The notes: generated by a model not told the origin, from the sequence alone. 64,000 nt of DNA from an uncultured virus (IMG/VR IMGVR_UViG_3300032050_000023) (IMGVR_UViG_3300032050_000023), one strand, 5' to 3'; counted from the first letter of the stretch, positions 47,253 through 64,000 are shown. Numbers and translations are program-made.

Positions 47253-50054
47253 TTCTTCTTCTCCTAAGAATTTTAACATAAATGGGTCTGCCAATCTATA
47301 CATATGGAATGGTGATTCACCAACCTTATCCCAAAAAACCATTTCTTCATCTGATATTTGCATCACATCTTCCAGTTTGTCTTGGTCTCCCTCCTCAAAA
47401 GGTTGTCCATTAATTAACTCACATTGTTCAGTTGTGAAGAAAGGTCTGTCTTCTGGATTTTTAATCAATAAAGATTTTCTAACCTCTTGTTTAAAAACAA
47501 CAAGTAACGGTTCTACTCTTTTGTTAAAAGTCGCAATTGCTCTTTGAATGTTATATTCTCCTAACATATCAGGATTGTTTTCTAAATCTGTTGGGTCTAA
47601 TCTATAACAATTTAATTGGATTATTGAATCCATGTTATCTTCAGGGTATGTACCATATCCGTCAAAATAACTATCTAAATGTTCTTGTGTCCATCCTTTT
47701 TTAGGTTTGTTAACTTTTTGAACGTCTCCATGTGATGCCTTAGTTCCATTGTTAACGTAATAGATAATATCACCAAGATTCACATTTAAGTTTTCTCTGA
47801 TTGCAAGTTCCATGTGTGCTTGTCTTGACATTAAAGCCCCCGCCTTTGTCTTGGTTTTACTTCTTGCAATATAATCGTCAATAGATTGTTTGACTTTTGA
47901 CTTGTTTGCAATTTGAGCCAAAGGAATTTTTTGATCGAATATTCTTTGTAGGTATTCATAATAGTATTCTACAAATCCTTTACCATCACCATCAAGTAAC
48001 ATTTTAATCGCTTTATCTAAAAATACCTCAATATACTTTGGCATCTTTTTAGATTTGATTGAGTTACCTGTAAGTTTGATTTTACCTTTACCTGTGATAA
48101 GGGCGTAGTTCTTTCTTGCTAAGTTAATACAGGCGGGCCACTGTCCATCAGTATCAAGTGCCATTTCACCTCTCATTGCTAAGTCATTAAACTCCATCAC
48201 ATCAGCTTCTTCACCTACATATTCTTTACCCTCCTTAACTTTCCAATTAAGTCCCTTACCAATGTATCTTCTACTTTCTACACCATCGGGAACAGAGAAG
48301 TTAATACCATCCGTGTCCATCACAAGTGGAGTATATCCTCTATCCATAAAGAAATGAATCATCATTCTTAGATACTGTCTTCCTGTACAAGTAATCATCT
48401 CACCTTTATCCATGTCACCCCAATGAAATACTTGTGGTGCAGATAATGAACCAAAGAATGCATTGATAAAGATTTTGATTGGTAACTGTTTTCTGTCAAA
48501 AGAAAGTGACTTCTTCTTGTCAATACTCGCATATTCCTCAGCCAAATTCTTATACATAATACGGGTTGTTCTAAAATGTGATAACAAACCTTTCATCGCA
48601 CCTGTTATATCGCATTCGGGAAATACATCATGAACCAACTGAATAGATGGGTATAGTGAAGAGTAGTCAAGTTTTAATACGTTCCTTGAATATCCTGTTC
48701 TGATTAACCTTGACAAACCACCAACAAAGTTTCTCTTCTCGTTTTTAGCAGGGATTGCAAGTCCATGTTTGTAAGACCATGCTAACATCAACATTTTCCA
48801 TAATGTCGCAGTTCCCATTGTTGAAACTCTTTCATATGTTGTTGGTACAAGTGAGGCGAGAAGAAAAGTTCCTTGATTGAACTCCTCATCAACAAGTAGG
48901 GTTTCCTCCAAGTCATCGTCAAGATATCTCTCTACAATATCGTCACCTGTTGTTTTGATATATATGTCATTTCTTCTTTCACAAACCTCATCAATCTTGG
49001 TATCAATACCAACTTTTTTATAACCACCATTTTGAATGTTTAACCAATATTCGTTTTTATTAGAATACATGGGGGCAATCTTGGTATGGTCAATATAGAT
49101 ACGGTCTTTTGCTTCCGCATCAATAAACTTTGTAATGTACTTAAGTCCCGCTTCTTTGATATTAGAATTGATTGCTTGTGCTCTACGAACTGAGTGTAGA
49201 ATATCAATTACGTTATAACCCCACATCTGAACTTGATTATATTTCTCAACTTCATTTGCTAATTTTAACATTGACTCCTTTTGGGATATTGGTTTGTTTG
49301 AATTAAGAGATGTATTAAGTTTTTTGATATCCAAGTTTAGAGCTTTACATCTCTCAAAAATCCAATACCAGTCAAAGTTCGCTGAGTTGTAACCTGATAT
49401 GATTGATGGTTTAATTTCTTCTATTGTCCTGAAAAACTCAACAAGTCCTCTTCTTTCTTCATCTTCGTCTTTACACTCAATTACTTTAAGAAAACCTTTG
49501 TTAGTTTTCATACCTATCATAAATATCCTACCGTCTTTTGGTTCTAAAGCGGTAGTTTCCAAGTCGAATACAAACCTCGTGATATCGTTGTATTCCTCGA
49601 ATCCTTTGAATAACCTTTTTTCTTTTGAGATGAGGTATTGTTCTACAGGCGGTAGAACCATTATTTTATCTTTTGTTTTTTCACCCCAAGGGTCTATTCC
49701 TCCGTCTCTAAAAAACTGAATGAGTGTTCTATATCCTTTAAGGGATTTAACCATAAAAGTTAAACCCCTTTCTAATCTTTCATTACCATCGGTACGTAAC
49801 TTCTCAATTACAATACCATATTTAGACATTGCCTCTTTTTGTAATCCTTTAGAATTACTATAAAAGTTTAAACCACGTAAATCACCAACCCATGCAAATG
49901 CAATAAGGTTATCTTTGACAATAGATTTACCTTTGTCAGGGACTTCTTTGATTTTAAAAATTTTGTCGGATGCGTAATCGTACTCTATTGATACGATGTA
50001 CTCTTCTGGGTCATTCCCTTCAAGGAACTTTTGAATCTCTTCTTGTGAAATCAT
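47223..50054 (-). CDS. polB: Family B DNA polymerase
   Basis: ExoI FDLET, ExoII GYNSANFDW; polymerase motifs DYSSLYPS, KIFINAFFG, MDTDG, KNYA. Confidence 0.93.
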   Translation of the reverse strand: MISQEEIQKFLEGNDPEEYIVSIEYDYASDKIFKIKEVPDKGKSIVKDNLIAFAWVGDLRGLNFYSNSKGLQKEAMSKYGIVIEKLRTDGNERLERGLTFMVKSLKGYRTLIQFFRDGGIDPWGEKTKDKIMVLPPVEQYLISKEKRLFKGFEEYNDITRFVFDLETTALEPKDGRIFMIGMKTNKGFLKVIECKDEDEERRGLVEFFRTIEEIKPSIISGYNSANFDWYWIFERCKALNLDIKKLNTSLNSNKPISQKESMLKLANEVEKYNQVQMWGYNVIDILHSVRRAQAINSNIKEAGLKYITKFIDAEAKDRIYIDHTKIAPMYSNKNEYWLNIQNGGYKKVGIDTKIDEVCERRNDIYIKTTGDDIVERYLDDDLEETLLVDEEFNQGTFLLASLVPTTYERVSTMGTATLWKMLMLAWSYKHGLAIPAKNEKRNFVGGLSRLIRTGYSRNVLKLDYSSLYPSIQLVHDVFPECDITGAMKGLLSHFRTTRIMYKNLAEEYASIDKKKSLSFDRKQLPIKIFINAFFGSLSAPQVFHWGDMDKGEMITCTGRQYLRMMIHFFMDRGYTPLVMDTDGINFSVPDGVESRRYIGKGLNWKVKEGKEYVGEEADVMEFNDLAMRGEMALDTDGQWPACINLARKNYALITGKGKIKLTGNSIKSKKMPKYIEVFLDKAIKMLLDGDGKGFVEYYYEYLQRIFDQKIPLAQIANKSKVKQSIDDYIARSKTKTKAGALMSRQAHMELAIRENLNVNLGDIIYYVNNGTKASHGDVQKVNKPKKGWTQEHLDSYFDGYGTYPEDNMDSIIQLNCYRLDPTDLENNPDMLGEYNIQRAIATFNKRVEPLLVVFKQEVRKSLLIKNPEDRPFFTTEQCELINGQPFEEGDQDKLEDVMQISDEEMVFWDKVGESPFHMYRLADPFMLKFLGEEELRHFETVGG

Positions 50055-50110: not shown

Positions 50111-50139
50111 AATATAGGAGTAAAAATTACTCTTATCAA
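50111..50139 (-). promoter_or_regulatory. Sigma70-like promoter for DNA polymerase
   Basis: Minus strand TTGATA-N17-TATATT. Confidence 0.6.
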
Positions 50140-50777
50140 CTGAGATTTTGAAAATGTTTAGCTATTCTTTTACTGAGTCTTACTCTTGGGTCATCTTCAG
50201 TCCTCCCAACCACATTATATGGTACTATAAATCCAAAACTTAAGAATACCCTTCTTGAATTGAACTCGTTTGTCCAATGTTTATAGAGTGAAGCTTCAAA
50301 ACCATATAAATCGGTTTCTTCAATGTGGATAGATTCTTTGTCAACAAAAAAATTATAATTGTCAGATAAAACACTTATATTACATTTATAGTTTATGTAA
50401 CCGTCAAGTGATGCGTCATAATGTGGATTTATTTTTCCACCTTTACTCATATCAACCGCTTGTAAAAAAATGTTATCTTTTGGAAAATTAAATTCTTCAG
50501 AAATTTTATTTATTAAATTATATATAAAATTAGGTAGATGTTCTTTTGAAACATCGGATATTGATTGAAATTTTGTAATATAATTTGTTAAAGGTGTATT
50601 GGAAATGTCAAACATAAAAGATTTACCATTAAGCGTTTTGGATAATTCTGTTAGGTGGTGATTACTATTGTTACCACTATGATTAACAGAATCAATCCAT
50701 TTTACTATTTGGTCTACTTCATCTTTTGAGATGAATTTTTTTTTTATCTTACAGGTTTCCAATTCCGTATTTTCCAA
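50136..50777 (-). CDS. 2OG-Fe(II) oxygenase-like protein
   Basis: INPHYDA (HxD), distal YKHW His, RVFLSF (RxS-like). Confidence 0.7.
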   Translation of the reverse strand: MENTELETCKIKKKFISKDEVDQIVKWIDSVNHSGNNSNHHLTELSKTLNGKSFMFDISNTPLTNYITKFQSISDVSKEHLPNFIYNLINKISEEFNFPKDNIFLQAVDMSKGGKINPHYDASLDGYINYKCNISVLSDNYNFFVDKESIHIEETDLYGFEASLYKHWTNEFNSRRVFLSFGFIVPYNVVGRTEDDPRVRLSKRIAKHFQNLS

Positions 50778-51015
50778 TTTTTTTTAAATTATGTTTTTCC
50801 AAAAACTCTTTTGGGTTCATTACTTCAATAATTGTTAATTCAGCAGAATCCATAAGTTGTTTTGCCTTTTCTTCAGGAACTGCCATAACACACAATTTAT
50901 GAGTTGCTGGTAATTCTCCTGTTGGTGATAAATCTATTTTTAAGATATTATCATTTTTCATTTTTTCTCTTGCTTGAAGAACTTTGCTTTCTTCACATAA
51001 TATACAGATTCTCAT
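50749..51015 (-). CDS. Hypothetical protein (88 aa)
   Basis: ORF overlapping the oxygenase start. Confidence 0.6.
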   Translation of the reverse strand: MRICILCEESKVLQAREKMKNDNILKIDLSPTGELPATHKLCVMAVPEEKAKQLMDSAELTIIEVMNPKEFLEKHNLKKIGKYGIGNL

Positions 51016-51027
51016 GTTTTGAATTTC

Positions 51028-53472
51028 TTATACGTTTATATCAGTTATGTTGATGGTATCCGAACTATCATAATAGGACAACCTTTTACTTCCACCCTGT
51101 CTCTCAAAAATTTGACAAGTATATGACTCATAAACTGATGGGTTAGAACTTACACCCGTTACTGTAATAACAACATCATCATCAACATCCGTACCTCCTA
51201 TTTGTGTTCCAAGTATTGTTATGGTATCACCTGTTTGATATAATTTGCCTTGTGTATTACCACTAACACCAACTACAGATCCTCCTGAAACCTCAATATC
51301 AAAAGATGCATTTACACCAATACCGTTTGTTACACCAGTTAATGACGTGTATGTACTATTTATTGCGGTAGTTCCTGTTGCAGTAAATGAAAATCCTGTG
51401 ATGTTTCCATAATTGGTTGTAAAATCAACTGTAGTGATAAATGTGTCTATAATATTCCATTGAAAATTGTTACCTATTGTATTTTCATTAAAATCATTAC
51501 CTATTGTATTTTCATTAAAATTTTCACCTATTGTATTTCCAGCAAATTCATTACCTATTGTATTTCTACTAAAATCAGGTCCTATTGTATTAGTATTAAA
51601 CGCGGAACCCCAAATGTTATTACTAACATAACCTAAAAAGTCATTATTAAAAGTATATGAACCAATATTATTACCATAAGTACCTCCTGAAAACTGATTA
51701 CCACCAACAAAAGAATCAACATTGTTTTCTTCAAATGACAGAAGCATCATATTACCTTTAAATTCATTTGATATTTTGTTGTGATTGAAATTATCATAAA
51801 TTGTATTATTTTCAAATGTATTACCGATAACATTATTAGTGGTTTGTCCACTTATGTCGTTATTAAAAAACGAAACACCAACGTTATTTTTATAAAAATC
51901 TTGAGTTATTATATTGTTGTTGAAATTGGTACCTATTTTATTTTCATTAAATGCGCTAATACCAATGTTATTAATATCCCCTAGTGTGTTATTATTAAAA
52001 TTATCACCAACTGTATTACTCTCAAACGAACTATATATATTATTACTGAAGAAACTAGGTCCGATTATATTAACAATAAAATCTGAATATACTTTATTAA
52101 TAAAAAACGATTCTCCGATTATATTATTTGTAAAATTATTAGTGTCTAATAAATTTTCATAAAAACTACCAACAATTTGGTTATTCTCAAATCCTGAATC
52201 AATTATATTATTATAAAAGTCACTACCAATATTATTGTTTATAAAGCCATCTTGTGACATTGTTATAAAGTTAGACGAAAAGTTTACACCAATTCTATTA
52301 TTGTCAAAATCAAACCCATCATCATCCCCAATCATATTATCTTGAAATCTCTCCCCAATCAAATTACCATCCATATCACAGTCGATAATATTTCTTTGGA
52401 AGTCCGTCCCGACTGTATTATCGTCAAAATCATTTGTAATAATATTATACTTAAAATTTGAACCACAAATATTTGAATCCATGTCTTCGTTAAATGTATT
52501 ACCTTCAACACCTCCACCAAAATAGTTATTTCTATAAGTTCCTGATAAAAATACATTGTTGGATAGTAAAAATGTGTTGTAATTATTAAAATTACCCAAA
52601 TAAGTATTTAAATTTAAATTATTATTAAAAGTATAATATTCTGAAAACCCTGTATATCCAGAACTTATAACGTTACATTGGAATGGACTCATATGTTGAG
52701 GTAAAGATATACCTCTTGAATAATATGTGTCGGATATGGTAGGTATTGTAGTTCCTGTGACATACATTTCGGTATCACTTGTTATACTTGTAATTTCAAA
52801 ATACCCAAAAGAACCAATCGGAAATTGACCAAAATTATTGTAAACTCCTAAAATGTCTCCAACAACAAAGTCACTGTTAAAAAAAGTTGTAAACCCTGTA
52901 ACAAGTCCTGTTGGGTCAATAGTAATACTACCATCTAGTAATTGTTCAGAAAAAAAACCTTCGTATCTTATAAATTGAACTGCTCTGAAATCATAATCGG
53001 CTCTGTTATTTTTTTCATCAATTCTTTCTGTAATCCTACCCTTCGCAGGACTTGATGTGACCTCAGTTGTATTCCAATTTATATCATAAGTAATTTTATC
53101 TTGTGGGTATAATGTTGAATATACAGTTGGTGAAAATCCTGTTGTTGAAGTTGCTAATAATAACAATGGTTCAGTATTACCCGTTTTATAGTTACCTGTC
53201 ACAATTGGGTCACCAACATTATTGAAATTAGGTTGGTCGTAACAAGTTTGAAAATCGGTCATTAAATAATAACCGCCAGGTGTTAAAGTTCCTCCAGTAT
53301 ATAAAGAATATAACTCATCGTAAGTTACTTCTTCATAAGTTCCTCCACCTGTTGATAAACCTGAATAAGGAATATGAAAAGTGAAACCACTTTGTTCGAT
53401 TGGAAATAACGAATTACTTGTTATTCCTGTTGATAGTGCTAATTCTCCTATTGTTTTTCCTGAAAGTATCAT
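51028..53472 (-). CDS. Tail fibre/spike-like protein with Asn-rich beta-helix repeats (814 aa)
   Basis: Many 11-aa NxIGxxFxxN repeats; N-terminal GKTIGEL..PIEQSG motif. Confidence 0.7.
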   Translation of the reverse strand: MILSGKTIGELALSTGITSNSLFPIEQSGFTFHIPYSGLSTGGGTYEEVTYDELYSLYTGGTLTPGGYYLMTDFQTCYDQPNFNNVGDPIVTGNYKTGNTEPLLLLATSTTGFSPTVYSTLYPQDKITYDINWNTTEVTSSPAKGRITERIDEKNNRADYDFRAVQFIRYEGFFSEQLLDGSITIDPTGLVTGFTTFFNSDFVVGDILGVYNNFGQFPIGSFGYFEITSITSDTEMYVTGTTIPTISDTYYSRGISLPQHMSPFQCNVISSGYTGFSEYYTFNNNLNLNTYLGNFNNYNTFLLSNNVFLSGTYRNNYFGGGVEGNTFNEDMDSNICGSNFKYNIITNDFDDNTVGTDFQRNIIDCDMDGNLIGERFQDNMIGDDDGFDFDNNRIGVNFSSNFITMSQDGFINNNIGSDFYNNIIDSGFENNQIVGSFYENLLDTNNFTNNIIGESFFINKVYSDFIVNIIGPSFFSNNIYSSFESNTVGDNFNNNTLGDINNIGISAFNENKIGTNFNNNIITQDFYKNNVGVSFFNNDISGQTTNNVIGNTFENNTIYDNFNHNKISNEFKGNMMLLSFEENNVDSFVGGNQFSGGTYGNNIGSYTFNNDFLGYVSNNIWGSAFNTNTIGPDFSRNTIGNEFAGNTIGENFNENTIGNDFNENTIGNNFQWNIIDTFITTVDFTTNYGNITGFSFTATGTTAINSTYTSLTGVTNGIGVNASFDIEVSGGSVVGVSGNTQGKLYQTGDTITILGTQIGGTDVDDDVVITVTGVSSNPSVYESYTCQIFERQGGSKRLSYYDSSDTINITDINV
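51470..51590. repeat. 33-bp coding tandem repeats (NTIGxxFxEN)
   Basis: Recurrent cctattgtatttt(c)cattaaaa units. Confidence 0.7.
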
Positions 53473-53535
53473 TTTTTTGTTTTTTTATATAAATATCATA
53501 TTTTGTTTATTAATTAAGTTAAGATGTTACATCGT

Positions 53536-54930
53536 TTAGGTTGGTGTTGGAGTTGGTGTTGGAGTGGGTTCTTGTTCAAATTGTAGTTCGTTAACTAAAA
53601 TATTTAATGGAAAATCAATGTCAATAGGTTGGATGAACACTTCTCCCGTTTTGGTTAACAAACTATAATTTAAAGCAGGATTAGTAGAAATTGTTTGACC
53701 TGATGTCTCATTTTTTGGTATTATTACTGTTGACCCTATTGTTATATCCCCACCACCAATTAAATCTAAATTAACACTTATTGGTAATGAGACGTTTTTA
53801 TTGATAGGGATATTTGAATTTACAGTAAAATAAGTAACAACTGAACCACTTGAGACATAAATACTTACGGTATATATAATTTCTGGATCTTTATATTCCA
53901 AATAAGAATTGTTTTCCACATCAATGTATTCATGATTTTCGGTTATAATTGGGTTAATTAATACTTCAAACGTTGGTGTAACTGTAGGTGTTGGTGTAAC
54001 TGTAGGTGTTGGTGTAACTGTAGGTGTTGGTGTAACTGTAGGTGTTGGTGTAACTGTAGGTGTTGGTGTAACTGTAGGTGTTGGTGTTGGGGTTATAGAG
54101 TAGATTTCATTTATAGTATATGTTAAATAATTTGGACTAAATAGTATGTTAGAAAAAACATCATTTCTTGTAAGATTATTGTAATCCACATCTAAAATAA
54201 CTTGTGTTGTCCCCGAAATATCTTGTAAATCTATAGTAACACCTGTTGTGATAGTAATTGGGTTACCACTATAAACATCAAGAGTATGTGTAAAATACAT
54301 CAACACTGGTTCATTAACATTTTGGTTTGCGGTTAAATTGTAATCAATAATTGTTGAACCTGTCGTAATTACCACATTTAAAACTACTTCCAATGGTATT
54401 GTTGTTGTCGTTGTTACTACAGGACTTGTTGTTGTTGTCGTTGTAATAGGTGGGCACGGTTGACAAGTCGGACAAGGAGTTGTAGTGGTAGTTGTGGTTG
54501 TTTTAAAAGGTACATCAACACAACATGGGAATTCACTTACATAACATGAATCATAAGGTAAATCATCCGCAATATAAGACTCCTGAACATTTATAAAAAG
54601 TTTTTCTCTAATTGGTAAAATTAAAACCCCATCAGAATTTCGTAATAAAAATTGACCTTCGTATCTCCCGACTTTATTTGTGTCTTTATTTTGAAATTGG
54701 TAATATACATAATATTCGGGGTCTGCGTTTGGTTCTAATAATTTTTTAGACACAAATCCCGCTGGTCTAGTAACTATTTTAGGAATACCTGTTTCTATGT
54801 CAACCATAGAAAAGAATATTGCAGATTCTTCTATTAAAGACATCATTCTATTGAAGTCACTTCTTCCATCTTTAACAACTTGTATTTTTAGTAGAGGTAA
54901 AGTAGCGTTTTTCTTAATAAAGAATTCCAT
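53536..54930 (-). CDS. Virion protein with BppU-like N-terminal domain and Thr/Pro-rich mucin-like linkers (464 aa)
   Basis: FFIKKNATLPLLKIQV...YYQFQNKDTNKVGRYEGQF; poly-Thr tracts and (TPTPTV)n. Confidence 0.65.
   Translation of the reverse strand: MEFFIKKNATLPLLKIQVVKDGRSDFNRMMSLIEESAIFFSMVDIETGIPKIVTRPAGFVSKKLLEPNADPEYYVYYQFQNKDTNKVGRYEGQFLLRNSDGVLILPIREKLFINVQESYIADDLPYDSCYVSEFPCCVDVPFKTTTTTTTTPCPTCQPCPPITTTTTTSPVVTTTTTIPLEVVLNVVITTGSTIIDYNLTANQNVNEPVLMYFTHTLDVYSGNPITITTGVTIDLQDISGTTQVILDVDYNNLTRNDVFSNILFSPNYLTYTINEIYSITPTPTPTVTPTPTVTPTPTVTPTPTVTPTPTVTPTPTVTPTFEVLINPIITENHEYIDVENNSYLEYKDPEIIYTVSIYVSSGSVVTYFTVNSNIPINKNVSLPISVNLDLIGGGDITIGSTVIIPKNETSGQTISTNPALNYSLLTKTGEVFIQPIDIDFPLNILVNELQFEQEPTPTPTPTPT
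53972..54079. repeat. Perfect 18-bp tandem repeat, 6 copies (GTTGGTGTAACTGTAGGT; encodes TPTPTV)
   Basis: Identical units read directly. Confidence 0.9.
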
Positions 54931-54958
54931 TAAATGTTTTTAATAATAAATATATCAA

Positions 54959-56641
54959 TCAACATTCTTTTCTAAGATGGGCTTCGTAAAATTCAAATCT
55001 ATTATGTTCGGTTGGTGTTAATAATAAAACAGCTGGGTTAATTTTACCTTTAATAGTTTCTTGATAACAATGACTCATAAGTGTCTGTTCATATGGGTGT
55101 TGAAATTTAGTTTCTAAATAACATTTGTAGTTACCCTCTTTAGACATTATAATTGGCCAATTAGAAAGATATATTTCACCACTAGCATATGGTACATTTT
55201 TATGGGACTTTATATATTTAAACTCTAAGTTTGGGGAATCTTTATCCAATCCTTGTTTAGGTAAGTTTTTATTTTCAGGCCAGTGAGATTCTCTAAATGA
55301 TTGAGGGACATTATACCAAGACCATTGTTTGTCATGACTACCAAAAAATTCCGTAAAATTTAATTTTAAAAAATCAAAACCTTCTTTAGTCATAATTTCA
55401 ATTGACGAGTTAAACAAATTTTTAATCTTTCTGTTGAACCCATTTTTACATACATTGTCTATACCATTGTAAAAAAACATATCATCCTCAAAAAAGAAAT
55501 AGTGACTTAAATTTTCTTGGTCATTAAAATGTTCCGCAATAAATTGCCTTCCACCTGTAATTCCTATGTTATCTTTTTTGATATGAACAAATCCATACAT
55601 ATCACATAATTGTAGATATTTTTCTGTTGTTGATAGGTCAGTAGAATTATTTAATAAAAACTTATTTGTTTTATTTAAAAAATTAGTATCATATTCTAAC
55701 ATAGAGTCAATTAAAGTCTCAAATTGTTTCGGGGAATTGAAAGAGATTACATATAGTCCTATGTCTTTTACTTCCTTAATTATTTTTGTTTTTTCTATAT
55801 TAGATGTAATAGATTTAATTTTTACGGTTTCATTTTTTACGTCTTCAAAAAATCGGTATAAAAGTCCGTTTGATTCTATTTCACAATAATCTATTAAGTT
55901 AGGATACAAATAAGTCATAATTGTAAACAAACTTTCTTCAGTCCCCATCAAACCATTTTTTAATGTATCCATCATCAAACTATAATATTTAGAATTCATT
56001 TCCGAAATTGTGTCTTTATTCCCACCAAAAAAACCACCTCTACAAACAAACTTGGGGTTTTGTGTAGAAAGTTCACACATTTTTTCATAATTAAAACCAT
56101 GTATTTCCGTATTGGTCTCATACGGAAAACAAATAAATAAAAATTTTTCTGTTAAACTTTTTATTTTATTTAAAACATCGTCATGTGTAAAATAACCTGA
56201 ATGAACAGTATTTGTGATTCCGGCATCTATCCAAAATAATTTATCAGAATTAAATTTATCCAATATTTTTGCATCATGAAGAAGAAACATTTTTGACATT
56301 ACAAGTGGATTATACATATCAAGTTTGGATTGTGTTGACTCTTTTAACCACCCAACCTGATTATACCAATTTGGGTTAGTTCTTATTGTTTGTATTGTCT
56401 CGTAATAATCGTTTGACTTAAACCAATTTAAATCCCTTAAAATAAATTGGGTTTTATCTGAATCACGCCTTTCATTAACAAAATGTTTAAGATTTTCATC
56501 TCCGTATATTATAAGATTGCAATCAACCCTCAACAATTCTTCCAACTTGTTTAGATAATGTTCATAGCTTCTAGACCATCCTTCTTCTAGATTACCTCTA
56601 CCAATGTCCCATAAACCAGTGACTAATGTTATTTTATCCAT
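54959..56641 (-). CDS. HtrL/YibB (WlaTC)-like glycosyltransferase fused to a second GT-A-like domain
   Basis: ITLVTGLWDIGRG, SKMFLL, FWIDAG, GGFFGG, GTEESL; C-terminal NIGITGGRQ..FFEDDM. Confidence 0.7.
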   Translation of the reverse strand: MDKITLVTGLWDIGRGNLEEGWSRSYEHYLNKLEELLRVDCNLIIYGDENLKHFVNERRDSDKTQFILRDLNWFKSNDYYETIQTIRTNPNWYNQVGWLKESTQSKLDMYNPLVMSKMFLLHDAKILDKFNSDKLFWIDAGITNTVHSGYFTHDDVLNKIKSLTEKFLFICFPYETNTEIHGFNYEKMCELSTQNPKFVCRGGFFGGNKDTISEMNSKYYSLMMDTLKNGLMGTEESLFTIMTYLYPNLIDYCEIESNGLLYRFFEDVKNETVKIKSITSNIEKTKIIKEVKDIGLYVISFNSPKQFETLIDSMLEYDTNFLNKTNKFLLNNSTDLSTTEKYLQLCDMYGFVHIKKDNIGITGGRQFIAEHFNDQENLSHYFFFEDDMFFYNGIDNVCKNGFNRKIKNLFNSSIEIMTKEGFDFLKLNFTEFFGSHDKQWSWYNVPQSFRESHWPENKNLPKQGLDKDSPNLEFKYIKSHKNVPYASGEIYLSNWPIIMSKEGNYKCYLETKFQHPYEQTLMSHCYQETIKGKINPAVLLLTPTEHNRFEFYEAHLRKEC

Positions 56642-56643
56642 TT

Positions 56644-57225
56644 TTATTTTTTTAATTCCGCATAATCAGACCATCCCCCATAACCAACATTATGGGTTAT
56701 AATATAATTTTTATTTATCAAAAAGTTTTTTAACTCTATTCCGTTTATATGTAAATTTTCATAATAAATCTTATCAATAATAAATTTATTAAAATTTATT
56801 GATTTAATGATTTTATCATCAAAACCTTCTGTATCAATATAAAGTATGTCAATTTTGGTTAAATTGTATTTTTCTAATAAACGGTTAATACATAAACAAT
56901 CAAGTTCACGATAACAAACACCATTTTCTGTATAATGATTTCTAACTTTTATTGAATGGGTTTTGTTTAAACTAGCCAATTCAAACTTATTAATATGGTT
57001 AGTATCTTCTTCATGAAAATAAATTTTCTCCTTTGTTAGATTTTCATCATCGGTTATTATTATATTTTCCAAATTAATATTCCCAACATGAGAATAACAT
57101 TTTAATAAACTTTCATTATGTTCAATGAAAGGTTCTACAAGTATTAATTTATTGATATTTTCATTTTGTATTAAATCTGTGAAATCATCGAATCCTCTGT
57201 TCGACCCTATTTGAACTGCTATCAT
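56644..57225 (-). CDS. FkbM-family SAM methyltransferase
   Basis: VQIGSNRG, LVEP, IDILYIDTEGFD..II, IYYE. Confidence 0.8.
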   Translation of the reverse strand: MIAVQIGSNRGFDDFTDLIQNENINKLILVEPFIEHNESLLKCYSHVGNINLENIIITDDENLTKEKIYFHEEDTNHINKFELASLNKTHSIKVRNHYTENGVCYRELDCLCINRLLEKYNLTKIDILYIDTEGFDDKIIKSINFNKFIIDKIYYENLHINGIELKNFLINKNYIITHNVGYGGWSDYAELKK

Positions 57226-57228
57226 TTT

Positions 57229-57924
57229 TTAATTCTTAATTTTACAAACCCAACCCACTTCTAAAAATGATGTCTCTTTAAGTGGTGTTAAATTATATTT
57301 TATATTAGTACCATCTATGTCCGAATCCTGTATTTCCATCCAGTTCCAAAAATTGTTTTTCATTTTTTTTTCAAAATACTCTTCGTTTGGTGAATAATCA
57401 TGTGCCATTATTATATCACCTGTTTTTAATAATTTAGAAATTAATCTGAATTCATTTTTTTTACTACCTCCATCACATAGAACTAATGTTGTACCTTTTA
57501 ATTGAATGTACTCTTTTAATTCATTCATACATTGATTATCAAAAAAGTCGCTATAGTCAATCAAAAATAAGTTTTTTACTATAAGGGATATCCTTTTTTT
57601 TTCTAATCTTTTTTTTGTAAATTCCGGTATTGAGACATCATAAGATATAAGTTCAGAATCCTTTAAATTATTTAAATCCAATAAGTCCCTAATTATTTCA
57701 GTTAACCCACCGTGAAAAGTTCCTATTTCTAACACTCTACTTGGTTTATGTAATTTAATTAAATCATTAAATCTATCAACAATATTCGGATTTTGTTCAA
57801 TTGACAGACCATTGTAACTTACGTGATTCACAACACCATTACGAAAATTAATATCAAAATAATCGTTTTCAAAACAATTTTTTGTTGAGCATGAAAGTTT
57901 ATTTTTAATTTCAGTTAAATTCAT
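57229..57924 (-). CDS. Class I SAM-dependent methyltransferase (CmcI/Methyltransf_24-like)
   Basis: VLEIGTFHGG, LCDGG, LKTGDIIMAHDY. Confidence 0.75.
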   Translation of the reverse strand: MNLTEIKNKLSCSTKNCFENDYFDINFRNGVVNHVSYNGLSIEQNPNIVDRFNDLIKLHKPSRVLEIGTFHGGLTEIIRDLLDLNNLKDSELISYDVSIPEFTKKRLEKKRISLIVKNLFLIDYSDFFDNQCMNELKEYIQLKGTTLVLCDGGSKKNEFRLISKLLKTGDIIMAHDYSPNEEYFEKKMKNNFWNWMEIQDSDIDGTNIKYNLTPLKETSFLEVGWVCKIKN

Positions 57925-58941
57925 TTAAAGAAGTTTTTTCAAGTCTATTCGGTTTATTAAGTATTCAATGTTTGATGGTAAAGTACAGTTTTTATCAAAC
58001 CAATTTTTAGCATTTTCCGATACAAAGTTTAAATATTCGTCATTATTTTTCACTCTATTCCATGTTGTAATTAAGTTATTTTTGAAATCGGTGTATGAGT
58101 TGTATTTAGGATGTCCATCGAAAGAATAATCACAGGAATGATAACAACTTATATAATGAAAATTAGGTATTAATGGGTCTGGATAATTAATATTTAAATG
58201 AGGTCTAATTACAGGTATCCCTACCCCAAAACATTCAATGTCCCTATTACACATTTCATTTCCACCTGGTAGACTTAAAGATACTTTATATTTTGATAAG
58301 TCATTCAGATATTCAGTATACTCCATATTTTGGTTATCAACATTTTTGTCAATAATAATAATGTCATCTGTTACAATTTCATTTACCATTTTTTTTCTAA
58401 AATCCCATAACCACCCCCTAAAAAAAAGTTTTTTTTCTTTATCTGAGTTTTTGTTTTTTTCATATAAAGAATTCATAAAATCATAACAACAATCAAAATA
58501 AGGCCCATAATAAAAAGGTTCATAAATATTTTTAATGTCATTTGGAAATTTTACATCTAAATTGTTTTTTGTGTTTGTTTTGAATGTATAGTAATCGTAG
58601 AAATTAAACCCTCCTGGATAAAAAAATTGAACCATGTTTTCCGCATCCCAACCTAAGTGAGACATGAAATGGTATTTCCAATTGTCAAAAAAAGAAATTA
58701 AAATATATTTTTTATTTTCAGGGTTCACTATTGAAAAATTCATACAACTATAAATTCCTCCCTGACCGTACTTTTCGTAATTTGTGTCGTTAACAATCTC
58801 AAAAGAGAAGTCGTTAAATTTTTTTTGTAGTTCGGTCAATAATTTATTAAAAAAATTAGTAATATAAAAATCTTTATCCCCAAATCGAATTTGTCTTTGT
58901 TCGTTCCTTATATGTAGTTTCATTTTTTTATAAATTTCCAC
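57925..58941 (-). CDS. GT-B glycosyltransferase-like protein (exostosin GT47 / GT90-like)
   Basis: LFFRGW...YLNDLSKYKVSLSLPGGNEMCNRDIECFGVGIPVI. Confidence 0.6.
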   Translation of the reverse strand: MEIYKKMKLHIRNEQRQIRFGDKDFYITNFFNKLLTELQKKFNDFSFEIVNDTNYEKYGQGGIYSCMNFSIVNPENKKYILISFFDNWKYHFMSHLGWDAENMVQFFYPGGFNFYDYYTFKTNTKNNLDVKFPNDIKNIYEPFYYGPYFDCCYDFMNSLYEKNKNSDKEKKLFFRGWLWDFRKKMVNEIVTDDIIIIDKNVDNQNMEYTEYLNDLSKYKVSLSLPGGNEMCNRDIECFGVGIPVIRPHLNINYPDPLIPNFHYISCYHSCDYSFDGHPKYNSYTDFKNNLITTWNRVKNNDEYLNFVSENAKNWFDKNCTLPSNIEYLINRIDLKKLL

Positions 58942-60175
58942 TTATTCTATTACACCACCCTTTGGATTTACTGTAAGGCCAAACAACCCAATATTTAGGG
59001 TTTTCAGTTGTATTAAATTCTCTCCATATTTTACAATAACCATCAGGGTCTTGTTTCATTCTAAGTATTTCTGAGGTATCTGCGTCTTGTCTATATAAAG
59101 TTTCATCTTTTTCGTTATGAAACGCAACAACCCAAAATTCATAATCATTCTCAGAAACATCATTGAAAGACACATCAATACAATGTTTAAATATCTTTGA
59201 GAAACTATCCATCCATTCTTGTTCATTTGTATAATCATACGGATTTGGAGGATATTTTTTATCTATAGTATACTGTTGAATTCCTCTTTTTGAGAATAAT
59301 ATACCAGAATATTTTTCGTAATCTCTTACTGTTCTTTCTGTGCCAAATCCATATTTTCCTAAGTCCCCATCATATTTTTCACCATCTACACCTAACACTT
59401 GTCTATTTTTTTTATGACAATTCTGATTTTTTATAAACCATTGTTTGTCATCATCCCACTGTTTTGTTCTACCTTTTCTTGTATATTCGTGCCAAATTAC
59501 GGTTTTGTGTGGGTGAAATAAATCATAACCATGTGTATATGCTCTTACGGCAATTGATATTTCCTCTCCATGAAAATAGTATTCAGGATCGTGTTGAACC
59601 TCATTGGAAAATTCTCCTAATGTAAAAGCAAAATGCGCAGAATAAAATCTTGCAGGAATTGGTTGTTTAAGAGTTTTCCAATTAGGAATAACTTCAGGTA
59701 AAAAGAAAACAACACCTTCAGGTGTAAATCTATCAAAAACCATTCGCCAAGGTTCATTAACTCTTCCTTGTGGGTCATTGTCAGGGTCAAAAGAAGAAAC
59801 ATAACCCGTTAATAATGGCTTTTTATGTCCTTTTTTTTGTAATTGTTTAACCATTTTAATTAATGTGTCATCCCAATTTTTTTCGAATCTCATATGAGAA
59901 TCCAACTGAAGGGTGTATTCCTCCCCATTATATAACTGTTGGACTTGATTTCTTGCCCAACAAACACCTGTTGATTCTTGATACGGGACATTTAAAATTC
60001 TAAATCTCTTGTCACTCTCATATTCTGATAAATCATCAAATTTATCTTCAGAATGATATTGTCTACAAATCCCAAATCTTAGGTTTTCAGGTTTTTTAGC
60101 TTTATCAATACAATCTTTAATTGTTGGTATAAGTTGAGGATCTCTATAGGATGCAATTTGAATAAAAATTTTCAT
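58928..60175 (-). CDS. GT60-like polypeptide GlcNAc transferase ([Skp1]-hydroxyproline GlcNAc-T family)
   Basis: IFIQIASYRDP, GVCWAR, LQLDSHMRF (DSH), FHGEEISIAVRAYTHGYDLFHP. Confidence 0.82.
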   Translation of the reverse strand: MKIFIQIASYRDPQLIPTIKDCIDKAKKPENLRFGICRQYHSEDKFDDLSEYESDKRFRILNVPYQESTGVCWARNQVQQLYNGEEYTLQLDSHMRFEKNWDDTLIKMVKQLQKKGHKKPLLTGYVSSFDPDNDPQGRVNEPWRMVFDRFTPEGVVFFLPEVIPNWKTLKQPIPARFYSAHFAFTLGEFSNEVQHDPEYYFHGEEISIAVRAYTHGYDLFHPHKTVIWHEYTRKGRTKQWDDDKQWFIKNQNCHKKNRQVLGVDGEKYDGDLGKYGFGTERTVRDYEKYSGILFSKRGIQQYTIDKKYPPNPYDYTNEQEWMDSFSKIFKHCIDVSFNDVSENDYEFWVVAFHNEKDETLYRQDADTSEILRMKQDPDGYCKIWREFNTTENPKYWVVWPYSKSKGWCNRISGNL

Positions 60176-60262
60176 TTTTTATTTAAAATAATAGAGCAAC
60201 TCATTTTGAAAATAAATGTTACCGAGATAACGTTTTAGATTTTTGTTTGATAGTAACTATTA

Positions 60263-61471
60263 CTAACTGTTTCTTGACTCTAAGTTTGACACTCTTGTTT
60301 TTAAAGACTCTATTTCTGTTGTCAACCTTTCTATAATTTTTTGTTGTTCTTTTGTAGATTCAACTAATAATGAAACCATTTCGGAATAACGTATTGTTTT
60401 GTAATCTGATATGCCATTGAATGTTACCGCTTCAGGTAAGAATGATTCTACTTCTTGTGCAATCATACCTATTTGTCTACTTTGGTCATCTACCTCAAAA
60501 TTTTCAGCGTTTTTATAATTAAAATAAACCCCTCTTAAATTTTTAACAATATCTGTTGCACCACTTATTGGTATTATATTTTCCTTCAATCTTACATCAG
60601 ATGATGTTGTTGTCAGTATTCCTGTTGTTGCGTTTCTATATAATGCAACGCCAGTGCTCGATACCGTACCTACCGATATTTCTTTATCAACTCTTAATTT
60701 TTGTTTGATATACAAACCAGATCCACCTATTGTCGGTAAATCCGTTCTTACTGATGGGTAAAAAATCATTTGGTCATTTGTACCACTACCACCAAAACTA
60801 GTTAAACCACTTGTCGAACTATTATTTATATAAAACGGTTCGTTTGATGAGGTAGAGTTCGCATCAATCTCACTATAATTAGTAAATCTTGTAAATGAAG
60901 AATCTACACCGCCTACCGAATCTCTCACTGTAATTCTAGCAGAATCTGTTGCTGTTTCTATTTGTACTGAGTTAACATTAGGACCTAAATTATATATTGG
61001 TGTACCCCCTGACCAATTTATTTTTATTAAATCATTTGTTCCTAAGACCGCACCAGATCCTGACGAATAAGAAAGTTTAAAAATATTGTTGTCGGACCTA
61101 TCAACACCAAAGGCGTAAGATGGTGTAGATGCGGACGTTGATAAAAACCTTATGAATGCATCCTGTGTTGATCCAGTGTCTCTTAATGAAATATTTGGGG
61201 ACGCTGAATTTTTAGTTAAAATCAATGTTGTACCATCAAATTTAGCATTTACTTCACCATTTAAAGTGTTGGGTGATCCAGTTGCGGTAATTAAATTATC
61301 GTTAACATTATTATTAATTGTTATACCAGTCAAGAATGTACTTGTAAAAGAACTATAAGGTAACGCTTCAGTTCTACCCGTAGATATAGGATTGTAATTA
61401 ACGATAGGCATTAGTGAATTAGAATAACCTGTCGTTGCAAAAGGGAGTGATGATATTGGTAAATCTGCCAT
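60263..61471 (-). CDS. Tail fibre protein with C-terminal intramolecular chaperone (peptidase S74)
   Basis: SSDVRLKENI, GMIAQEVE..LPEAV, YSEMVSLLVESTKEQ plus coiled coil. Confidence 0.85.
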   Translation of the reverse strand: MADLPISSLPFATTGYSNSLMPIVNYNPISTGRTEALPYSSFTSTFLTGITINNNVNDNLITATGSPNTLNGEVNAKFDGTTLILTKNSASPNISLRDTGSTQDAFIRFLSTSASTPSYAFGVDRSDNNIFKLSYSSGSGAVLGTNDLIKINWSGGTPIYNLGPNVNSVQIETATDSARITVRDSVGGVDSSFTRFTNYSEIDANSTSSNEPFYINNSSTSGLTSFGGSGTNDQMIFYPSVRTDLPTIGGSGLYIKQKLRVDKEISVGTVSSTGVALYRNATTGILTTTSSDVRLKENIIPISGATDIVKNLRGVYFNYKNAENFEVDDQSRQIGMIAQEVESFLPEAVTFNGISDYKTIRYSEMVSLLVESTKEQQKIIERLTTEIESLKTRVSNLESRNS

Positions 61472-61490
61472 AATTTATATATAAATATAT

Positions 61491-62747
61491 TTAAGTAACA
61501 ATTATTCTTCCACCATCTTCTTGTAAAATTAAAAACATATTTTCTTGTGCTAAGAATGGTTTCACTATTGGTGATGGAGTTACTGTTGGAGTTACTGTTG
61601 GAGTTACTGTTGGTGTAACTGAAATTGTAGGTGTAACGGTTGGTGTGGGTGTTGTTGTTGGTGTGACTGAAATTGTAGGTGTAACAGTTGGGGTTATAGT
61701 TGGTGTAGGTGTAGAAGTTTTTGTTGGTGTAACGGTTGGTGTAACTGAAATTGTAGGCGTAACTGTTGGTGTAACTGTAGGAGTAACAGTTGGTGTAACT
61801 GTAGGAGTAACTGAAATTGTAGGTGTTACAGTTGGTGTAGGGGTAGATGTTTTTGTAGGTGTGACAGTTGGTGTAACTGTTGGGGTGGTTGTTGGTGTTA
61901 ATGAAATTGTAGGTGTAACAGTTGGTGTAGGAGTAGTAGTCTTTGTTGGTGTAACTGTTGGAGTAGGTGTTGTTGTAACGGTAGGTGTTACAGTTGGTGT
62001 AGGTGTAGAAGTTTTTGTTGGTGTTACTGTTGGTGTTACTGTAGGTGTTACAGTTGGTGTTACAGTTGGTGTAGGTGTAGAAGTTTTTGTTGGTGTGACA
62101 GTTGGTGTAACTGTTGGGGTGACTGAAATTGTAGGTGTAACAGTTGGTGTAGGAGTTGGGGTTTTTGTAGGAGTTGCGGTAGGTGTAACAGTAGGAGTTG
62201 CGGTAGGTGTAACGGTTGGTGTAACTGTTGGAGTAACAGTTGGTGTGGGTGTTTGTGAAAAACTTGGGTACGGTGGAGTACACCCAAATTCAAAACATAA
62301 ATCACCTATTCCTAAGTTTAAATTAATTATATTTGTTGGATTTGTACCACAAGCAAAATAAGTAATTCCACTTGACACCTCAATGTTTGTTTGTTGATTA
62401 CCAAAACAATCAGTATAATCAAAGTATCCAGAAACTGTTGAGGTATTCTCAAGTCTCAAACAATAACAAAGATTTGTTGGTGTTGATGTTGGGGATGGGG
62501 TTAAAGTAGGTGTAGGTGTTGATGTTACACAATAATAAGGATGAAATACTTCACAACCTTGATTATCGGTTATTTTAACAATAAAAGAAGTTGACCCATT
62601 AAAAGGGAATGGTAAATCAAAAGAGTAATTAGGAGGTATTGTAACGGAAGAATTCTCAACAACACAGAATGAGTTAGTGATATCACATACCGATATTTCA
62701 AAAGGTGGAGTTCCTGTGACACCTGTAATTACAACTTGTGTTGGCAT
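61491..62747 (-). CDS. Mucin-like Thr/Pro-rich virion protein with Cys-containing N-terminal domains (418 aa)
   Basis: About 230 residues of TPTV/TPTP repeats; C-terminal LAQENMFLILQEDGGRI. Confidence 0.75.
   Translation of the reverse strand: MPTQVVITGVTGTPPFEISVCDITNSFCVVENSSVTIPPNYSFDLPFPFNGSTSFIVKITDNQGCEVFHPYYCVTSTPTPTLTPSPTSTPTNLCYCLRLENTSTVSGYFDYTDCFGNQQTNIEVSSGITYFACGTNPTNIINLNLGIGDLCFEFGCTPPYPSFSQTPTPTVTPTVTPTVTPTATPTVTPTATPTKTPTPTPTVTPTISVTPTVTPTVTPTKTSTPTPTVTPTVTPTVTPTVTPTKTSTPTPTVTPTVTTTPTPTVTPTKTTTPTPTVTPTISLTPTTTPTVTPTVTPTKTSTPTPTVTPTISVTPTVTPTVTPTVTPTVTPTISVTPTVTPTKTSTPTPTITPTVTPTISVTPTTTPTPTVTPTISVTPTVTPTVTPTVTPSPIVKPFLAQENMFLILQEDGGRIIVT
61570..62255. repeat. Degenerate 12-bp-unit coding repeat (TPTV/TPTP)n
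   Basis: gttggtgtaact-type units with synonymous variation. Confidence 0.85.
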
Positions 62748-62775
62748 ACAAATAAATATAAACTCAATTTGAATT

Positions 62776-63033
62776 TTAGCAAGGGTTTATTGTTGTTGTT
62801 GGTGTTGGGGATGCACAAGAATAAAATTCAAATTTTTCACAACTATCGGCATCAACTATTTTATTTAATAACTAACATGAAGTATCTAAAGACGATGGAA
62901 CCGTAAATGTATAACTTGGTGGACATGAAGTTAATCCCGTTATAAAAACACATAATGTATTTGTAATATCACAAACATAAACATCAAATGGTGTTGTTCC
63001 TGTTATATTAGTTATTGTAATATCGTTTGACAC
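62776..63033 (-). pseudogene. Paralogue of the N-terminal domain of the 418-aa mucin-like protein, interrupted by an in-frame TAG
   Basis: GTG start: SNDITITNITGTTPFDVYVCDITNTLC...VPSSLDTSC*LLNKIVDADSCEKFEFYSCASPTPTTTINPC; TAG at 62872-62874. Confidence 0.65.
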
Positions 63034-63495: not shown

Positions 63496-64000
63496 TTATA
63501 ATTTTATTTTTAAATTTATCATTGTAGTTACCGTTGTTGGATTTGTAGTCCATGTTGGTGTAATCCATCTAACTTGTAATTTATCACCACTTGTTACCGA
63601 TAATGGAGTTCCTAAAACAAAATTATTATTAACTGTTGGGCTGAACGATATTCCTGAAACAACCACATTTCTTATTCTTTTACCTTTAGTACCTCCTGGA
63701 TTAATACTAAACCTAATTTTCATTTGGTTTGAAGTTGCGGGAACGGTTACTGAAGTTGGGATGTATGGACTCGAGGCCGTTGGTGTTGCGGTAAGACCCG
63801 CAGTTGCCCATGTAGAACCGTTATCTAACGAATATTCCACCAATACAGGTCCGTCAGTACCTGACCCAAAAGTTGCAATATCTAATGAAACAACTAAAGA
63901 AACATAAGACGACCCATCAAATGTAGGTGATGTTAATGTCGATGTTATTCCTGTAAGTCCGGCATAACTATTAATATATGTTACAAAAACCGATGCCCAT
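63496..64000 (-). CDS. Partial fibre/decoration protein (enters from the right edge)
   Basis: Frame stays open from 63999 through the ORF-track start; VEYSLDNGSTW Asp-box-like motif; beta-sandwich-like sequence. Confidence 0.7.
   Translation of the reverse strand, partial: WASVFVTYINSYAGLTGITSTLTSPTFDGSSYVSLVVSLDIATFGSGTDGPVLVEYSLDNGSTWATAGLTATPTASSPYIPTSVTVPATSNQMKIRFSINPGGTKGKRIRNVVVSGISFSPTVNNNFVLGTPLSVTSGDKLQVRWITPTWTTNPTTVTTMINLKIKL

Follow-up and report, generated by a model that had tools for sequence, protein, structure and literature searches.

The 64,000-nucleotide stretch of DNA analyzed here (the window) comes from an uncultured virus recorded in IMG/VR as IMGVR_UViG_3300032050_000023, and carries five co-directional enzyme genes on the minus strand (54959-60175), which are flanked by two proteins with long Thr/Pro tracts and by a tail fibre. 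The first of these genes encodes a glycosyltransferase (GT) of the GT60 family. Sequence comparisons and structure models led us to propose, with a probability of about 0.6, that the phage encodes a cytoplasmic system for Thr-directed O-glycosylation of its own fibre-like proteins, with glycans that would vary between strains. Direct support was obtained for the enzyme families and folds, the solubility of the enzymes, the operon-like layout, the variability of the cassette and the genomic coupling of GT60 to Thr/Pro tracts.

Organization of the five-gene cassette

The initial annotation described five tightly coupled genes in this region, and the corresponding minus-strand open reading frames (ORFs) were indeed found there, overlapping or 0-3 nt apart. 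Counted from the GT60 gene on, the spacing consists of a 14-nt overlap followed by gaps of 0, 3 and 2 nt, and 28 nt separate the last gene from the next one. In this order, the genes encode the GT60-family (PF11397) glycosyltransferase (58928..60175), a protein of 338 amino acids (aa), or 332 aa from Met7, that is possibly an extending transferase of the GT-B type (57925..58941), an S-adenosylmethionine (SAM) methyltransferase similar to CmcI and rhamnosyl O-methyltransferases (57229..57924), an FkbM-family methyltransferase (56644..57225), and a fusion of an HtrL domain with a second domain, both of the GT-A type (54959..56641). Transmembrane-like segments were found in none of the five enzymes (maximum KD19 0.62-0.99), all of which are predicted from their sequences to be soluble.

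The GT60 enzyme

The lead enzyme had been annotated as a GT60-like GlcNAc (N-acetylglucosamine) transferase, and profile and structure searches agreed with this. The protein matched PF11397 ('GlcNAc') with an E value of 2.9e-72 and 244.5 bits (cut-off 21) in two stretches (profile positions 2-45 and 97-349), and it matched phrog_24687 with an E value of 1.4e-170. An AlphaFold2 (AF2) model built from a 46-sequence alignment reached a predicted local distance difference test (pLDDT) score of 96.1, and its fold was closest to GT27. When the model was searched against the PDB (Foldseek, VIA re-alignment), the best 29 entries were all polypeptide N-acetylgalactosaminyltransferases (ppGalNAc-Ts) of GT27 (Z 19.3-22.3), which aligned with model residues 1 to ~330 over 262-304 residues at a root-mean-square deviation of 3.3-3.9 Å (6.4 Å in one row); generic GT-A enzymes came next, with Z of at most 17.9. 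The animal GT27 enzymes are therefore the best structural match of the phage catalytic domain (29/29 top entries), but the two differ in that identity in the structural alignments is only 11-15%, that neither phmmer nor a 10-sequence profile gave anything useful against PDB sequences, and that the Pfam scan detected no ricin-type lectin domain in the phage enzyme. The catalytic GT-A domain (aa 1 to ~330) is followed by a conserved extra beta-domain of ~90 aa (aa 326-415). In the DSH motif (D92-S93-H94), D92 and H94 are invariant in both the 10- and the 46-sequence alignments, and S93 is invariant in the former and present in at least 90% of the latter.

GT60 has been characterized, in the available excerpt of one report (PMC8724618), as a family of protist polypeptide alpha-GlcNAc-transferases that are kin to GT27 and devoid of its ricin domain; the GT-A domain with a DxH motif and the kinship to GT27 are likenesses of the phage enzyme to this group. 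Furthermore, PF11397 is common to the phage enzyme and the mucin-type initiators of Dictyostelium and Trypanosoma cruzi, the phage match lying far above the cut-off, and the candidate acceptors of the phage enzyme are Thr/Pro-rich and mucin-like. On the other side, the protist mucin-type enzymes act in the secretory pathway, whereas the phage enzyme is soluble, anchorless and encoded by a bacteriophage, and it has the additional conserved C-terminal domain. Judged from its sequence, the membership of 58928..60175 in GT60/PF11397 is firm, and from its family and modelled fold we propose that it is the initiating polypeptide O-GlcNAc or O-HexNAc (N-acetylhexosamine) transferase.

GT60 relatives are numerous: 7319 sequences of the protein collection passed a threshold of E <= 1e-5, and the family comprised 4798 representative clusters at E <= 0.001. 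Giant members (P0122-P0134 and others), 1100-2460 aa long, contain between two and four GT60-like stretches in tandem.

Coupling of GT60 to Thr/Pro tracts

In IMG/VR, 285 of 286 candidate stretches encode a GT60 relative (68-100% identity), and 80 loci fetched from these are the basis of all counts out of 80 given in this work; a looser, alignment-based scan gave at least 583 contigs with a confirmed relative. Thr/Pro tracts were scored in 12-residue windows that contained eight or more T+P, with a minimum of three T and three P, and an ORF counted as TP-positive when 12 or more of its residues fell in such windows. This measure at the protein level was used because a strict TPTPTPTP pattern at the DNA level undercounts TPTVTP repeats, with 2 hits in the contig.

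In the clade, 55 loci that differ in their GT60 and HtrL sequences yielded 861 ORFs, of which 103 were TP-positive, compared with a background of 6/333 away from the cassette in the complete genome of a relative (G002). The gene just upstream of GT60 was TP-positive in 24 of 53 loci and the gene after the HtrL fusion in 15 of 52, whereas none of 119 ORFs inside the cassettes was; 46 of the 55 loci had at least one TP-positive ORF within the flanks. In the whole of G002, eight of 377 ORFs were TP-positive, two of which abut GT60 and three of which lie 70 kb away.

A second sample was drawn blind to GT60, on the basis of (TP)6 repeats. At least 127 IMG/VR stretches carry such a repeat, 80 loci were listed, and of the 50 longest contigs 44 were searchable. 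PF11397 was found in 10 of these 44 contigs, as against 0/34 control contigs chosen in the same way with (GS)6 (Fisher p 0.004), and the tract lay within 5 kb of GT60 in seven of the ten, compared with 1.6 expected (p ~1.4e-4). In three (TP)6 contigs, the GT60 enzyme is just 42-45% identical and there is no HtrL fusion; a TP-positive gene of 535-604 aa follows GT60 there, either directly or after one gene of 265 aa.

The pairing extends to bacteria. At least 591 GT60 relatives were obtained, from which 79 loci were kept, 51 of them with a full upstream flank of 10 kb and at most ~54% identity. Five of the 51 were dropped, as the ORF caller had missed the GT60 frame (in two of these a TP-positive gene lies directly upstream), and 46 remained. 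Fifteen ORFs in these 46 had 20 or more tract residues, and every one stood at gene rank -2, -1, +1 or +3 relative to GT60, with none at ranks -8 to -3, +2 or +4 to +8. The upstream neighbour differed from all ORFs at rank >=2 with a Fisher p of 0.002. Several of these loci are close kin, and independent events are far fewer than rows. Sixteen TP-positive ORFs drawn across the bacterial loci were put to Pfam. Three were VgrG spikes of the Burkholderiaceae type, standing for seven ORFs at rank +3, and three had an Rv2525c-like hydrolase domain (Sphingomonas and an Actinomycetota metagenome-assembled genome, MAG). BNR/fn3, laminin-G, sedolisin/subtilase, PqqD and crAss-muzzle domains were found once each, and five ORFs gave no Pfam match. 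The VgrG genes with Thr/Pro tracts three genes from GT60 are at L385 15075-17564, L361 12267-15131 and L334 13900-16389 (Paraburkholderia, Ralstonia and Paraherbaspirillum); at L354 6387-10004, L349 4859-8374 and L386 8847-9971, an Rv2525c-like protein with a Thr/Pro tract ends at or overlaps the start of the GT60 gene.

These results showed that GT60 adjoins Thr/Pro-rich genes in the phage clade of the window, in the XacN1-type phages described below, in (TP)6 viral contigs and in bacteria; the initial annotation had asked for such a test across related phages. Overall, the initial observation is largely sound and the pairing well above chance.

Candidate acceptors next to the cassette

Three Thr/Pro-rich genes of virion type had been pointed out around the cassette, of which two stood up to inspection, with 86 (53536..54930) and 252 (61491..62747) residues in tracts, and the third (62776..63033) did not. 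All three are on the minus strand, as are the other genes of the window given below.

The 464-aa protein at 53536..54930, a candidate acceptor, has a conserved N-domain of ~137 aa, after which come linkers of poly-Thr and (TPTPTV)n, two more domains and, at the C-terminus, a PTPTPTPTPT tail. A homologue of its N-domain directly follows the HtrL gene in 74/80 loci, either alone (126-138 aa, with a Cys-Cys end) or extended by poly-Thr or Thr-Pro linkers and variable domains to as much as 1906 aa. In two loci, L006 and L007, the GT60 enzyme is 100% identical to that of the window and the Thr/Pro gene differs: L007 has one additional TPTPTV unit of 18 nt, and L006 has a 91-nt deletion just past the repeat that truncates the protein to 324 aa. 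The differences are either a polymorphism in repeat length or an artefact of assembly.

The 418-aa protein at 61491..62747, also a candidate acceptor, begins with two small Cys-rich domains, continues with ~250 residues of (TPTVTP)n and closes with a short peptide; its match to phrog_15511 is limited to the tract. Between it and the cassette, 60263..61471 encodes a tail-fibre protein with a C-terminal intramolecular chaperone (Peptidase_S74, E 5e-16; 27 tail-fibre PHROGs). In the third gene, a broken paralogue of the sequence encoding the N-terminal domain of the 418-aa protein, codon 54 is an in-frame TAG; only a short SPTPTTT stretch is present, and an ORF of 53 aa (62872-63033) remains open. 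Recoding of this TAG was considered an unlikely explanation, since table 11 leaves the long ORFs uninterrupted, 2 of the 42 ORFs of the window stop at TAG, and no tRNA gene is present in the window. The C-terminal part of a 576-aa fibre-like protein (63496..64000) runs past the window end, and farther along the contig (locus L005) lie genes for a (TPT)n protein of 277 aa and for a protein of 973 aa that has both a Thr/Pro tract and a C1 peptidase domain. Shorter Thr/Pro tracts occur in the 1110-aa tail sheath, in an 1835-aa protein (5003-10510) and in an 1118-aa SprB-repeat protein.

A peptide of 20-27 residues of similar type, with hydrophobic pairs around E-D/N-G, closes several Thr/Pro proteins directly behind their last tract, for example at 61491-61570 of the window (the C-terminus of the 418-aa protein) and at L005 5027-5100, and a like motif follows every tract of XacN1 ORF325 (L102 7371-17312). 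Inspection by eye alone found the peptide in 10 of 107 distinct TP-positive ORFs; it may serve in docking.

Tailoring enzymes and their variation among relatives

The HtrL fusion had been recognized as such in the initial annotation, and both parts were recovered: PF09612 (HtrL_YibB) matched aa 3-252 with an E value of 6e-18 and 65.8 bits (cut-off 24.1), and the AF2 model placed a second GT-A domain at aa 285-560. With 74 bits, the protein misses the equivalog cut-off of NCBIfam TIGR02192 (264.9); by sequence, it is thus classed as a member of the HtrL_YibB family and not as an equivalog of Escherichia coli YibB. The model (22 sequences; pLDDT 84.8) predicts two GT-A domains joined by a disordered linker at 280-291. 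The N-domain (aa 1-268) has a GT6-like fold (Z 13.3-13.6 to BoGT6a and blood-group GTs), and the C-domain is of the GT2/GT12/GT13 type (Z 14-16 to B4GALNT1, POMGNT1 and GnT-I) and carries a conserved NNSTD motif (N332 and S333 invariant) and an invariant EDD; phmmer against PDB sequences gave nothing useful for the fusion. The whole fusion aligned with the two-domain GT-A enzymes LH3, Mimivirus R699, K4 chondroitin polymerase (K4CP), LARGE1, ColGalT1 and heparosan synthase 2 (Foldseek E 4e-12 to 6e-7), several of which build repeating disaccharides or act on protein-linked sugars. However, TM-scores to these enzymes were just 0.23-0.28, since the domain orientations differ, and taken singly the domains resembled the GT6 type (N) and the GT2/GT12/GT13 type (C), with Z of 13-16.

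The assignment of two SAM methyltransferases was likewise supported, by PF04989 (RMNT_CmcI, E 1.6e-6) for 57229..57924 and by PF05050 (E 5.7e-9) and TIGR01444 (E 3.6e-7) for 56644..57225. The reading of 57925-58941 as a transferase similar to GT47 or GT90 fared less well. This 338-aa protein had no match in Pfam, NCBIfam or the PDB, nor did a 24-sequence profile of it against the PDB; none of 120 listed homologues bears a Pfam domain, and hhalign of the family against a cassette protein bearing RXYLT1_C gave a probability of 0.4. The only pointers were language-model leads in the ESM Atlas to Glyco_trans_1_2, GT90 and RXYLT1_C clusters at 0.94-0.95, and the protein is a possible extending transferase of the GT-B type. 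Its homologues occupy the cassette slot in 7 loci and are present in 11/80 by BLAST; homologues of the CmcI-like methyltransferase occur in 19/80 loci and those of the FkbM enzyme in 2/80.

Analysis of the related loci revealed that the two ends of the cassette are kept and its middle is not. A homologue of the HtrL fusion lies downstream of GT60 on the same strand in 78/80 loci; in the other two, at least ten further genes follow, running out of the fetched flank. The interval holds 0-7 genes (none in ten loci), amounting to 163 ORFs in 45 clusters. The representatives of 21 clusters matched Pfam, and these matches were exclusively glycosyltransferases, methyltransferases or a fusion of HAD and nucleotidyltransferase domains; the glycosyltransferase families were GT25, PLOD-GT, GT2, GT34, GT10, GT11, GT7C, RXYLT1_C and a single HtrL domain. 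Enzymes of predicted extension and methylation functions are present, in combinations that differ from one relative to another.

A search of 50,697 deposited phage records gave GT60 relatives in four only, XacN1, Xoo-sp13 and the Stenotrophomonas phages CM1 and RAS14, with 44-48% identity. In XacN1 (Xanthomonas; GT60 47% identical to the window enzyme) and RAS14 (Stenotrophomonas; 44%), the two of the four that were examined, the order of GT60, tailoring genes and a full-length homologue of the HtrL fusion is kept (39% identity, E 9e-145 and 1e-138, respectively). The cassette adjoins a protein of 3313 or 3138 aa that comes after the baseplate-wedge genes and has Thr/Pro tracts near its end, and polB is a few kb off, as near the window cassette. 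In contrast, the tailoring genes differ from those of the window and include a carbamoyltransferase and a GT9. Annotations of the XacN1-type clusters read 'glycosyltransferase' or 'hypothetical' only.

A putative oxygenase near the cassette

A 2OG-Fe(II) oxygenase (2OG, 2-oxoglutarate) had been noted nearby, and the ORF, 50136..50777, is there and encodes a 213-aa protein in which an HxD...H...RxS pattern is visible. Its match to Asp_Arg_Hydrox is below threshold (E 0.11), phmmer against PDB sequences gave nothing useful, and Atlas leads complete the evidence for what remains a putative, accessory oxygenase. It was found in 2/13 related records, 5/80 loci and none of the five near-complete GT60-bearing genomes, and does not accompany the cassette as a conserved partner. 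The GT60 family includes the Skp1-hydroxyproline enzyme, and the Skp1 route of prolyl hydroxylase and GT60 had been mentioned as a precedent initially; given the counts in related records and near-complete genomes, we rejected it as a general mechanism.

Proposed mechanism and alternative explanations

According to the mechanism that we favour, Thr side chains would receive their first HexNAc from the soluble GT60 enzyme; the precedent of the family points to alpha-GlcNAc, with UDP-GlcNAc as the donor. These Thr residues would lie in the Thr/Pro and poly-Thr linker tracts of the phage's fibre-like proteins, which would be modified during their synthesis in the host cytoplasm. The genes between GT60 and the HtrL fusion, here those of the putative transferase and the two methyltransferases, would extend and O-methylate the sugar, and the dual GT-A fusion would add two further linkages, possibly a repeating pair. 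As the middle genes vary by strain, the glycans on one and the same type of stalk would differ among related phages. The initial view that the phage initiates, extends and methyl-caps O-glycans on its own stalks thus keeps its core, namely the family and fold of GT60, the coupling to Thr/Pro tracts, and the enzymes for extension and methylation; the hydroxyproline route is not supported, the third substrate is a broken gene, and the putative transferase has no family match. The acceptor, the sugar, the order of the steps and the place of the Thr/Pro proteins in the virion are what we infer from these data.

A number of observations weigh against this mechanism. The support is circumstantial, in that it consists of gene neighbourhood and predicted fold, and likeness of fold does not give the substrate; the virion location of the Thr/Pro proteins, too, is deduced from gene neighbourhood. 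The cassette sits inside a module of fibre genes, so that nearness to Thr/Pro tracts could reflect its position in the module alone. The HtrL gene is followed, in roughly every second distinct locus, by the tract-free N-domain of 126-138 aa alone, and the flanks fetched for 9/55 loci contained not one TP-positive ORF. A single genome (G002) supplied the background rate for such ORFs, and many contigs of the clade and of the (TP)6 sample derive from one abundant clade and are not independent events. In the (TP)6 sample, 34 of the 44 contigs, including 5/6 near-complete ones, lack GT60, and therefore Thr/Pro tracts do not need it. Moreover, 24/45 cassette clusters have no Pfam match.

If protein is the substrate, the sugars may still be placed off the Thr/Pro tracts, on Ser/Thr elsewhere in fibre, sheath or capsid, or on hydroxyproline in the few phages with an oxygenase. 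The cassette is kept in loci whose neighbours are without tracts, the putative oxygenase lies 4 kb away in the window, and the Skp1 enzyme is a precedent within GT60, yet the rarity of the oxygenase (2/13 records, 0/5 near-complete genomes) and a positional enrichment that is specific to TP-tract ORFs make this unlikely. Alternatively, the cassette might remodel a glycan of the host envelope, the lipooligosaccharide (LOS) core or another surface glycan, during infection, with the tracts serving as unmodified flexible linkers; this could block superinfection or change adsorption. GT25, GT10, GT11 and GT2, all present among the cassette families, are common in LOS synthesis. HtrL_YibB has been reported in LOS and lipopolysaccharide (LPS) core loci (PMC4172580, available excerpt), and the accessible part of another report describes cyanomyovirus glycosyltransferase clusters that its authors read as modifying the host surface (PMC12801897). 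Both the LOS-type families and the HtrL domain count against our proposal as well. We nevertheless regard envelope remodelling as quite unlikely, in view of a conserved first enzyme with the family and fold of polypeptide transferases, the position of the cassette among structural genes, and bacterial GT60 genes that stand beside TP-tract genes, VgrG included, outside LOS contexts; a lipid-carrier transferase, flippase, polymerase or ligase was found in none of the 21 clusters named by Pfam (24 are unnamed).

Glycosylation of the phage DNA, that is, sugar hypermodification on a hydroxymethyl pyrimidine for escape from restriction, appears very improbable. 5-Hydroxymethylcytosine is a known target of phage GT-A and GT-B enzymes, which attach a variety of glycans to it, but such pathways usually cluster with 5mYOX, C5-methyltransferase or ThyS genes (10.1101/2023.12.21.572611, as far as its available text goes), and a partner of the 5mYOX or ThyS type was absent from scans of the window cassette, C5-methyltransferase not having been searched for. 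A family-B DNA polymerase does lie within 10 kb in 51/80 loci, and all five near-complete relatives have a ThyA-family gene. In G002, however, this gene is ~164 kb from the cassette, and at the aligned position ThyA has an Asn, which we take to mark enzymes of the dUMP type. Tet_JBP was found in 0/5 genomes by a search without a positive control, which says little, and the coupling of GT60 to TP-tract genes in bacteria also speaks against DNA as the substrate. The G002 gene itself (31482-32315, plus strand) is a divergent ThyA-family member, either a thymidylate synthase or a hydroxymethylase.

Phage background and other features of the window

The parent contig of the window is deposited in IMG/VR as a virus record 79,694 bp long, with an estimated completeness of 27%; it contains 100% of the sampled words of the window (window position = record position - 9,735). 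Near-complete relatives measure 274-322 kb, and the phage is therefore considered a jumbo myophage. The GC content of the window is ~31%. Elsewhere it carries genes for a contractile tail (sheath, tube, baseplate wedge and hub) and for a ribonucleotide reductase, a DnaB-like helicase, a UvsX-like recombinase, an SSB and a family-B DNA polymerase. Megablast of the 12.9-kb region of the cassette gave no match among the 50,697 phage records, and a scan of the window for promoter-like sites (88 vs 86.3 expected) and terminator-like sites (3 vs 5.8 expected) was uninformative.

Beyond the candidate acceptors, polB (47223-50054), an 88-aa protein (50749-51015) and an 814-aa protein with repeats of the N-x-x-G-x-x-F type (51028..53472) are encoded, all on the minus strand. 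The last has no Pfam or PHROG match and homologues in 20/80 loci, and is probably fibre-like. The 1110-aa tail sheath (37270-40602, minus strand) matches sheath families in residues 818-1107 alone, with a long N-terminal part beyond the match, and includes a Thr/Pro tract of 35 residues. Three very large ORFs of the structural region (21052-27504, 27820-32661 and 5003-10510, minus strand; 2150, 1613 and 1835 aa) gave no PHROG match at E <= 1e-5.

Two observations hint at a host among the Bacteroidota. An 1118-aa TP-tract protein (L004 3779-7135, minus strand) has an SprB repeat (PF13573, E 1.8e-17), and the closest GT60 matches in the bacterial collection, among the matches listed, are 58-73% identical (loci L321-L330) and come from MAGs labelled mostly Saprospiraceae, Bacteroidetes, Lewinellaceae, Cytophagaceae and Chitinophagia, with a few of other labels. 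These MAG sequences are probably binned phage contigs.

Comparison with known systems and implications

Few phages are documented to glycosylate their own particles with virus-encoded enzymes. The closest documented system, as far as the available excerpts go, is that of mycobacteriophages, in which a tandem set of glycosyltransferases, adjacent to an O-methyltransferase, is reported to act on proteins of the capsid and tail tube (PMC11600133 and PMC12619734, citing Freeman et al., 2023). The two are alike in that soluble, phage-encoded glycosyltransferases and an O-methyltransferase form one cluster, which in mycobacteriophages acts on the phage's own structural proteins and here would do likewise. 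They differ in host phylum and phage type, in the GT60 lead enzyme, in the long TP-repeat, fibre-like candidate acceptors, and in the cassette of 0-7 genes. For aquatic jumbo 'moraphages' with Bacteroidota hosts, the available part of a 2025 paper lists four glycosyltransferase orthogroups in the core (>=80%), with targets not assigned. A literature search, with most subscription journals outside its reach, gave no description of GT60/PF11397 in phages or beside VgrG. New in the present work are the hypervariable cassette bracketed by GT60 and HtrL, the dual GT-A HtrL fusion, the (TP)6 test backed by controls, and the demotion of the oxygenase and the third substrate.

On a wider and more tentative reading, about which we are doubtful, cytoplasmic mucin-type O-glycosylation of the appendages of contractile injection machines would be common to prokaryotes and phages. 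GT60 would then act on Thr-Pro stalks of fibres and of VgrG spikes of type VI secretion systems (T6SS), the hypervariable cassette of jumbo phages would give rise to glycan 'serotypes' on the same stalks, as O-antigen loci do, and GT60 in these systems may be sister to the mucin initiators of animals and protists.

If the proposed O-glycosylation of fibre-like proteins is true, uncultured jumbo phages of an abundant group equip themselves with mucin-like glycoprotein fibres, made with kin of the eukaryotic mucin-initiating enzyme, which would bear on the origin of GT60 and GT27. The strain-variable sugars would bear on adsorption, protease resistance and recognition by grazers or host defences, and the pairing of GT60 with Thr/Pro tracts beside bacterial VgrG would extend the idea to secretion systems.

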